Shown here piece after piece: positions 2,883 to 4,151 of a stretch of DNA of 64,000 bases. A program made the translations under genes and the position numbers. Within the stretch, counting starts at the first letter, position 1; every line of letters starts with the position of its first letter. The notes under the pieces are model-generated. The model ran no database searches and was not told the origin of the DNA. It was given only the letters and a program-made list of their open reading frames with translations. The stretch lies in assembly GCF_056746865.1 (NCBI RefSeq), contig NZ_CM163382.1. One strand, written 5' to 3'.

Positions 2883-4151
2883 ATGTCTTTAAACGATTCT
2901 AAAATCCGCAAGTTAAAATCTTCTTCCCGTCCGGTAAAACTCTCCGACTCTCACGGTCTGTATCTGCTCGTCAATCCGGGCGGTTCGCGCATCTGGTATC
3001 TCAAATATCGTTTCAACGGAAAAGAATCCAGAGTCAGTCTTGGCGCATACCCGCTGGTCTCACTGGCAGAAGCCAGGCAACAGCGCGACGGTATCCGCAA
3101 GTTACTGGCGCAGAATATCAACCCGGCGCAGCAGCGCATGGCAGAGAAAGCCGCCTGCTCCCCTGAAAAGTGCTTTAAAGCGGTGGCGGTGGCGCTGGCC
3201 TGGCACAAAACCAACAAAAAATGGTCGGCTGATTATGCCGCCCGTATTCTCGCCAGTATGGAAAACCATATCTTCCCGGCGGTTGGTCATTTGCCCGTTG
3301 CCAAACTTAAAACGCAGGATTTCACTGCCCTGCTGAGGGTTATTGAGGATAAGGGCTTTCTGGAAGTCGCGTCCCGCACGCGGCAGCAACTCAGCAACAT
3401 CATGCGCTATGCCGTATAGCAGGGGCTTACCGAAAGCAATCCGGCGCAGCATCTGGATGGCGTTGTCTCCTCCCCCGTAAAGAATCACTACCCCGCGTTA
3501 CCGCTGGAGCGGTTGTCCGAACTGCTTGGCCGCATCGGTGACTATCAGCAGGGCCGGGAGTTAACCCGGCTGGCGGAGGTGCTGACACTGCACCTGTTCA
3601 TCCGTTCCAGCGAACTGCGTTTCGCCCGCTGGAGCGAGATCGATTTCAGGCACAAAATCTGGACCATCCCCGCCACCCGCGAGGCCATCGACAAAGTTCG
3701 GTTTTCGGGGCGTGGCGCAAAAATGCGTACTCCGCATATCGTACCGCTCTCCCGCCAGGCGATTGCCCTTCTGAAACAGATACAGGAGCTTTCCGGCCAT
3801 CTGGATCTGGTGTTTCCCGGCGATCATAATCCGTACAAGCCAATGAGCGAAAACACAACCAACCGGGCGCTGCGCCTGATGGGGTATGACACGAAAACTG
3901 AAATCTGCGGGCATGGACTCAGGGCAATGGCCTGTAGCGCCCTGGTGGAGTCGGACCTGTGGTCACGCGATACGGTGGAGCGGCAAATGAGCCACCAGGA
4001 GCGCAACAGCGTGCGGGCGGCATATGTGCATAAAGCAGAGCATCTGGAGGCCAGAAAGGCCATGATGCAGTGGTGGTCGGATTATCTGGATGTGTGCCGC
4101 GAGGGGTATGTTGCGCCGTACATTTATGCCCGGCAGCATAAGGCAGCCTGA
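2883..4151 (+). pseudogene. P4-type tyrosine integrase next to tRNA-Asn, interrupted by an in-frame amber codon (TAG 3417..3419)
   Basis: ORFs 2790..3419 and 3513..4151 share one frame; N-terminus MSLNDSKIRKLK is typical of P4-family integrases; C-terminal HGLR...SHQERNSVRAAY catalytic region is intact. Confidence 0.8.

Follow-up and report, generated by a model that had tools for sequence, protein, structure and literature searches.

The Yersinia high-pathogenicity island (HPI), whose cargo is yersiniabactin, targets the 3' end of asn tRNA genes with the core CCAGTCAGAGGAGCCAA and encodes a P4-type integrase of three domains. At asnT in most E. coli, this island has been fixed by a deletion at its right border that removed both the direct repeat and adjacent backbone (PMC2606025). 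P4- and CP4-type prophage integrases share a domain order, an adjacency to tRNA genes and a set of R-K-H-R-H-Y motifs. Jackson et al. placed rhs locus 8 of E. coli between yodB and yeeJ and rhs locus 7 between yeeO and cobT, in passages that give the flanking genes only and of which none ties these loci to an integrase or to an asn tRNA (2009, BMC Genomics 10:584, PMC2935791).

Here we describe a 4.1-kb islet between asnT and yeeJ in a window of 64,000 nucleotides (the whole stretch of contig NZ_CM163382.1 that was analysed), consisting of a dead integrase gene, a 1.3-kb spacer, an Integrase_1 recombinase gene and an EFASI RNA (Table 1). The islet occupies the same target as the HPI and encodes the same three-domain type of integrase. 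However, the HPI examined possesses an intact integrase followed 194 nt later by ybtS, with no adjacent Integrase_1 gene, whereas the islet integrase contains a nonsense codon and the parent island of the islet carried Rhs rather than yersiniabactin cargo. Likewise, the domain order and tRNA adjacency of P4/CP4-type prophage integrases are recognizable, along with candidate R-K-H-R-H-Y motifs, but in a frame that is broken at codon 179. Loss of the right-hand attachment site (attR) and backbone from the islet is analogous to the right-border deletion of the HPI (PMC2606025). Full-length relatives of the islet possess an RHS core gene and a small gene in exactly the intervals given in those passages of Jackson et al. 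(PMC2935791); the window keeps none of the Rhs part of the yodB-yeeJ locus, only the integration module. In all, it is very probable that the window harbours the integrase of an asn-tRNA Rhs island which acquired an amber codon, then a short duplication, and then lost 6,580 bp by deletion.

Table 1. Features of the asnT-yeeJ islet and its borders, in window positions.
Feature	Position	Strand	Basis
asnT, tRNA-Asn(GTT), intact	2645..2720	+	ARAGORN; Rfam tRNA 72.6 bits
P4/CP4-type tyrosine integrase pseudogene	2883..4151	+	translation, Pfam, PHROG, NCBIfam, RefSeq annotation
6-bp in-frame tandem duplication, GCGGTG twice, adding Val-Ala	3180..3191	+	allele comparison
TAG from CAG (Gln), integrase codon 179	3417..3419	+	12 alleles compared at this codon
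AT-rich (40% GC) non-coding spacer separating the recombinase genes	4152..5461	.	conservation, repeats, folds
Intact 294-aa tyrosine recombinase, Integrase_1 (PF12835) + Phage_int_SAM_2 (PF12834)	5462..6346	-	Pfam
EFASI RNA (Rfam RF02957)	6401..6530	-	cmscan, full model
Deletion junction, GGTA microhomology	6835..6838	.	base-by-base comparison with PEC389
yeeJ remnant	6842..10775	+	K-12 comparison, RefSeq annotation, ORF list

Translation of the integrase frame, which starts 162 nt past asnT with the tRNA 3' end adjoining it on the attL side, yields 422 codons and a terminal stop, interrupted by one internal stop; no uninterrupted full-length frame is present. A first-pass annotation, made from the sequence alone, had proposed a P4-type integrase frame of 423 codons about 160 bp after tRNA-Asn, and both the length and the family assignment hold. 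With the amber codon read as Gln, domain searches detected Arm-DNA-bind_3 (Pfam PF13356; residues 3-87, E = 8.7e-24), the central core-binding domain Phage_int_M (PF22022; residues 102-193, E = 5.9e-25) and Phage_integrase (PF00589; residues 234-386, E = 2.7e-16), and this three-domain order is the P4/CP4-type architecture. The top PHROG was phrog_1, an integrase family, while the score against NCBIfam PRK09692 (223 bits, under its 434-bit cut-off) marks the protein as related to that specific model but not belonging to it. A sequence search of the PDB returned solved relatives only for the two N-terminal domains, namely 3jtz (“CP4-like integrase”, E = 4e-34) for the first and 2kkv and 2kj9 for the central core-binding domain, and none for the catalytic domain. 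Motif inspection identified six candidate catalytic residues (R241, K280, H344, R347, H371 and Y381), all of which are identical in the HPI integrase. At the amber codon, translation stops with residue 178, still within the core-binding domain and before any of the six candidates is reached. Given that the first in-frame Met past the amber lies at residue 281, which already follows the box I Arg, no ATG-initiated product could hold the full catalytic set.

Comparison of alleles revealed two lesions of different age in this gene. The amber codon is the sole frame-breaking lesion of the window integrase and corresponds to codon 177 in alleles without the 6-bp duplication. At this position CAG (Gln), preceded by GTT, was found in all five intact relatives fetched, as the first-pass annotation had stated for the family, whereas in every amber allele compared the TAG is preceded by the synonymous codon GTA. 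An 81-bp probe centred on the TAG matched 442 of 5426 complete E. coli genomes, with at least 99% identity in 264; these come from numerous hosts and laboratories and include ATCC 8739. Integrase copies 100% identical to that of the window were identified in EC6563 (with a 1.8-kb query) and in EC17CM13, both with an “internal stop” in RefSeq; the label in EC6563 reads “tyrosine-type recombinase/integrase, internal stop”. The same pseudogene call was attached to every amber copy examined, across ten independent assemblies. The amber stop is thus real and inherited. Hundreds of public genomes flag the integrase as a pseudogene, and the locus has already been catalogued. The duplication, which reads AVAVALAW compared to AVALAW in alleles without it, is a second, in-frame and sublineage-specific lesion, shared by the window, EC6563 and EC17CM13 and absent from 13 other alleles fetched. 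Once it is removed, the window integrase is identical to the allele of PEC389.

The parent of the islet was recognized through genomes that retain the remainder of the island. In PEC389 and ATCC 8739, the same amber allele heads a 10.4-kb island at asnT comprising, in order, the P4-type integrase, the 1.3-kb spacer, the Integrase_1 recombinase with EFASI upstream of it, a small gene after C4/isrK-type RNAs, an RHS core gene, a small gene and a 21-bp attR. The RHS core gene is a complete 4.2-kb frame in PEC389 and, by annotation, a partial pseudogene in ATCC 8739; the gene downstream of it in both islands measures 393 bp and, following an RHS core (toxin) gene, is presumably an immunity gene. 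The attR, CCAGTCAGAGGAGCCAAATTC, is a direct repeat of the asnT 3' end, beyond which the K-12 spacer and yeeJ resume. Islands with intact integrases and Rhs cargo were also identified at asnU or asnW in Z142-6, PCN033 and 2014C-4423, and the attR repeat was located in the first of these. Neither the RHS core gene nor the toxin tip and immunity gene is present in the window, where they fall within the deleted 6,580 bp, while full-length relatives retain them. From these sequence comparisons, the parent element is an asn-tRNA-specific Rhs island of E. coli and not the yersiniabactin HPI. A strict partition, with all asnT copies amber and all intact copies elsewhere, was refuted by an intact allele at asnT in O145:H28 RM13516 and by an amber allele at asnV in YZ22MPE6, the latter accompanied by IS1 and PTS cargo. 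Both exceptions fit an exchange among the four near-identical asn loci.

The tRNA genes and flanking genes of the window correspond to the E. coli region mtfA-asnT-yeeJ...asnW-yeeO-asnU-cbl-nac-asnV, with three further asn tRNA genes at 18124 (minus strand), 19948 and 22357 and serU at 1564-1653, the last with a normal CGA anticodon (all by ARAGORN). The core of attL, CCAGTCAGAGGAGCCAGATTC, comprises the asnT 3' end plus 5 nt (2705-2725), and the same 21-mer recurs as attR in PEC389, ATCC 8739, Z142-6 and EC6563. It does not recur at the far side of the islet. Searches of the window with a 25-mer and a 16-mer of the asnT 3' end, allowing up to 3 mismatches, returned only the four asn genes and one 3-mismatch match far off at 44287, and the attR 21-mer found no match in 2721-7200 with up to 7 mismatches. 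This agrees with the earlier statement that no downstream copy of the tRNA 3' end exists, and leaves no direct repeat of the kind that would have marked an intact islet. Comparison with K-12, as a genome with the asnT-yeeJ arrangement, showed that homology ends at 2725 and restarts at 6835, such that the 4.1-kb islet has been inserted and the K-12 asnT-yeeJ spacer of about 300 bp has been lost.

The position of the deletion was resolved by base-by-base comparison with the PEC389 locus, of which the window lacks positions 9240-15819, or 6,580 bp. About 6.3 kb of the island, including cargo and attR, and about 300 bp of asnT-yeeJ backbone were removed, in accordance with the first-pass reading of a remnant islet whose cargo and right boundary had been deleted. 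The last base of island sequence is 6838, and backbone from the yeeJ side begins at 6835 within the shared GGTA, with the yeeJ ATG following 7 nt later at 6842. This junction configuration was found in 4 of 5426 genomes, compared to 206 genomes that keep the island right end, attR and the junction with backbone. The islet of EC6563 is 99.98% identical to that of the window and shares the 6-bp duplication, but its deletion differs, starting after window position 6692 and keeping the last 166 bp of the island together with attR. The difference indicates that loss of cargo postdates the amber mutation and happened independently more than once. A further nested deletion, at TAAGC microhomology, was identified in PK5086. 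The recurrence of breakpoints at GGGTA is, in its own right, a more open-ended observation than the pseudogene. yeeJ itself is also degraded: it keeps the first 91 nt of coding sequence, joined near 6932 across an internal deletion of about 3.1 kb (K-12 6428-6525 corresponds to window 6835-6932, and K-12 9664 onward to window 6928 onward), with a further break in the frame near 9272-9369. RefSeq notes the yeeJ of EC17CM13 as “internal stop; missing N-terminus”.

Taken together, these comparisons trace a history of three steps. A CAG to TAG change at codon 179 arose in a now widespread lineage. Given that the stop follows the arm-binding and most of the core-binding domain, leaving the catalytic domain unmade, the island could no longer excise itself. 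A 6-bp in-frame duplication then arose in the sublineage of this strain, and a deletion between two GGTA motifs removed the 6,580 bp containing cargo, attR and about 300 bp of chromosome. The amber mutation came before the loss of cargo. The deletion itself was probably an illegitimate, microhomology-mediated event. The islet would now be doubly immobilised, without an enzyme and without a right-hand substrate, and may be inherited only vertically or through homologous recombination in its flanks. asnT presumably stays functional, since the island end restores the tRNA 3' end. In these terms the locus is an ordinary decayed island end and a textbook case of stepwise fixation, in which the integrase first suffers a nonsense mutation and the cargo and right attachment site are lost thereafter. 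For annotation, its value lies in attributing the 4.1-kb asnT-yeeJ stretch to what is left of the yodB-yeeJ Rhs island instead of to the HPI, and in recording that the yeeJ of the window has lost its native upstream region.

Three other readings of the locus were weighed against this history. Given that TAG lies one base from CAG and that the frame is otherwise unbroken, the stop might reflect an error of sequencing or assembly in a truly intact integrase, as the first-pass annotation had itself cautioned. We attach next to no probability to such an error: 264 complete genomes, produced in numerous laboratories and on numerous platforms, share the identical stop, ATCC 8739 carries it in two independent records, and it is found on alleles that differ elsewhere at up to 23 sites, always with the linked GTA. 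The count of genomes and the divergence of the amber alleles together exclude it. That the islet is instead a remnant of the Yersinia HPI from which the yersiniabactin genes were lost is similarly far-fetched, even though the insertion site and att core are the same, the integrases are related (69% protein identity) and the arm domain of the window integrase matches PDB 3jtz as reported above. At the DNA level, the integrase of a true HPI at asnT shares only about 74% identity with that of the window, and ybtS comes directly after it; in protein, alignment of the two places His in the HPI integrase at the amber position. Everything downstream of the window integrase matches the Rhs island, with the Integrase_1 recombinase and then yeeJ in place of any ybt, irp or fyuA gene. 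According to a third reading, the 4.1-kb islet would be complete as it stands, a minimal element of two recombinases and an RNA that had no cargo at any stage, and its relatives would have gained their Rhs genes later. This reading draws on the recurrence of the int/Integrase_1 module at island ends with quite different cargo in other genera, and on the short islet of EC6563, which is bounded by attR. In EC6563, however, the islet terminates in the final 166 bp of the full island, which are attached behind an internal breakpoint, and the window integrase minus its duplication is the integrase of the full-length PEC389 island. The window itself has no attR, and the right end of its islet runs straight into yeeJ with some 300 bp of backbone lost; such a fusion and loss are the signature of a deletion and not the end of an insertion. 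A minimal element is therefore very unlikely.

Loss of cargo from an Rhs island thus remains the preferred account, within which the amber codon could still be a maintained attenuator, rare read-through of UAG by near-cognate tRNA-Gln putting back the ancestral Gln and supplying a trace of wild-type integrase, with selection keeping the allele as a version of low activity. Seven distinct amber alleles were sampled, differing at up to 23 of 1263 sites (up to 1.8%), and despite this divergence the TAG is the only frame-breaking lesion in all seven. Polymorphism among them comprises 22 synonymous and 9 non-synonymous variants, and 9:7 among novel changes, namely those unseen in intact alleles (P about 0.016 against an expectation of 72% non-synonymous). 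A synonymous bias with no second lesion calls for caution, as a long-dead gene should not display one. Also consistent with attenuation, the replaced codon is CAG (Gln) and the next base is C, which after a stop codon constitutes a weak termination context, and the amber allele occurs at asnV with different cargo; were the attenuator real, it could account for the lack of a second frame-breaking lesion and also for the presence of this allele at two asn tRNA genes with different cargo. About half of the amber-group variants, however, are shared with intact alleles, which points to gene conversion among asn-linked copies, many genomes holding two, and such conversion accounts for the surplus of synonymous variants. 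Past the stop, novel changes split 4:4, not distinct from the neutral expectation. With the polymorphism count confounded by shared variants, it supports no conclusion on selection. The asnV copy is explicable by homologous exchange in a genome with two integrase copies, and the neighbouring serU, the classical supD suppressor locus, retains its normal anticodon. Furthermore, attR is gone from the window, such that an active enzyme would be without a substrate for excision and the question of a leaky amber is moot here. Overall we regard attenuation as unlikely, if the least improbable of these alternatives, and on the sequence evidence the integrase gene of the window is most probably dead, an ordinary decayed gene.

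Beyond the integrase, the first-pass annotation had reported that no yersiniabactin or other cargo follows. The first part of this statement stands, in that no ybt genes were found; the second needs amending, as a recombinase gene and an EFASI RNA are present. The recombinase is convergent with the dead integrase, and its two domains are full length in an open frame, with PF12835 covered over 1-149 of 149 positions (E = 6.7e-60) and PF12834 over 1-91 of 91 (E = 2.9e-39). It is 97% identical to a cluster of 798 sequences, and relatives of 293-294 aa occur across Enterobacteriaceae. The EFASI RNA lies 55 nt upstream of the recombinase start codon on the same strand, a placement upstream of an integrase-family gene that matches the Rfam description of RF02957. 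It scores 95.7 bits (gathering score 51.2; E = 1.8e-19) over model positions 1-133 of 133, and was also identified in EC6563, PEC389 and Z142-6. STAXI, the usual partner of EFASI, returned no match in the window islet at E-values up to 1, and none at its gathering score in EC6563 or in the full islands of PEC389 and Z142-6. A literature search returned nothing specific on a characterised PF12835 member or describing the asnT islet.

Matches to the 1.3-kb spacer came from 430 E. coli genomes, each of which carries it at one or two sites. It was considered as a plasmid-borne or repeated mobile sequence, and this was rejected: there was no plasmid match, copies number one or two per genome, and they always belong to this island family. 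Most of the genomes listed, and all loci examined, carry no gene annotation within it. An alignment of 7 alleles was used to assess its conservation, and a repeat search identified three hairpins, each followed by GAAAnCTATCAAT, at about 4335-4383, 4506-4553 and 4575-4624; folding of the spacer DNA gave z-scores of -6.4, -3.4 and -3.2. By eye, a hairpin resembling an intrinsic terminator was also seen past the integrase stop, at about 4186-4216. An island-specific 1.3-kb non-coding spacer composed of hairpin-plus-motif units is, as a subject, more open-ended than the pseudogene beside it.

The Integrase_1 gene, EFASI and the spacer look like island backbone and not cargo. A convergent int/Integrase_1 pair also lies at the ends of islands with unrelated cargo in Salmonella, and the same pairing was identified on a Klebsiella-type contig, there with an integrase that is either split or left uncalled. 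The conserved trio of P4-type integrase, Integrase_1 recombinase and EFASI RNA is likewise a more open-ended observation than the decay of the integrase gene.

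The stump of the asnT island retains two recombinase genes, and the pairing recurs beyond E. coli. At the ends of Salmonella islands, a recombinase of the Integrase_1/Phage_int_SAM_2 family is convergent with a P4-type integrase, and an Integrase_1 gene is also paired with a P4-type integrase on a Klebsiella-type contig, where the integrase is split or not called. Which partner is broken differs among loci: in the window and in L016, a further comparison locus, the P4-type integrase is broken and the Integrase_1 gene intact, while the reverse state is found in strains LH85-a and PCN033. 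An EFASI RNA lies 55 nt upstream of the Integrase_1 gene in the window.

Features between the P4-type integrase pseudogene and the IS2 copy
Feature	Coordinates	Strand	Remarks
AT-rich non-coding spacer, 1.3 kb	4152-5461		conserved; hairpin units ~4335-4383, ~4506-4553, ~4575-4624
Integrase_1/Phage_int_SAM_2 recombinase gene	5462-6346	-	intact; assigned by domain families
EFASI RNA	6401-6530	-	full-length; Rfam RF02957
yeeJ remnant (inverse autotransporter adhesin)	6842-10775		wrecked
IS2 copy	11202-12522		301-aa TnpB, NCBIfam PRK09409 at 708 bits

The two genes are separated by a spacer with matches in 430 E. coli genomes, all of them within the asn-linked island family and none on plasmids; most of the genomes listed have no annotated gene in it. 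In contrast, the intergenic gap in the Salmonella version of the module is just 194 bp. Each of the three spacer units in the window consists of a different hairpin (12-15-bp stem) followed by the conserved motif GAAAnCTATCAAT; other alleles have a fourth unit, formed by 71 nt inserted after position 4260.

Downstream, island DNA replaces the native upstream region of yeeJ, which has also undergone an internal loss of ~3.1 kb (6526-9663 of the K-12 locus, L004) at ~6932, and the remaining frame is split into ORFs 6936-9272 and 9369-10775. Immediately left of each of three deletion junctions at the asnT-yeeJ locus (window 6838, window 6932 and 13093 of comparison locus L001) is GGGTA, and the right-hand partners end in TA (GGAAGGTA, GGGGATA and CCCAATA). 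Furthermore, CGGGTATCTG is common to the island and K-12 yeeJ, at both left breakpoints. This recurrence could reflect coincidence, template switching or enzyme preference.

The same amber integrase allele was also identified in YZ22MPE6 (L024 13763-22480), at the head of a different island at asnV, whose cargo comprises IS1 and a cluster for PTS-dependent sugar utilisation. Strains differ in how the asn-tRNA-bounded segment is ordered and oriented, with LH85-a and PCN033 (L005/L006) showing cobT-ldtA-asnV-nac-cbl-asnU-yeeO-asnW-int relative to window 18124-22432. These arrangements are consistent with inversions via recombination between oppositely oriented asn genes; such inversions would also shift the island between 'sites' without any integrase. 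In the full Rhs island of PEC389, the recombinase and Rhs genes flank a small gene that is preceded by C4 antisense, isrK and c4-a1b1 RNA matches (L008 10157-10341).

EC17CM13, otherwise near-identical to the window, lacks the IS2 copy, which is inserted between a glycosyltransferase-9 gene and yeeJ. Next to cobU, EC17CM13 has ~36 kb of mosaic, IS-ridden DNA (L023 11109-47282) missing from the window, holding dcuR, ansB, aspA and dcu paralogues, and dgo genes; only ~0.9 kb (window ~26468-27370) lies between the matching flanks.
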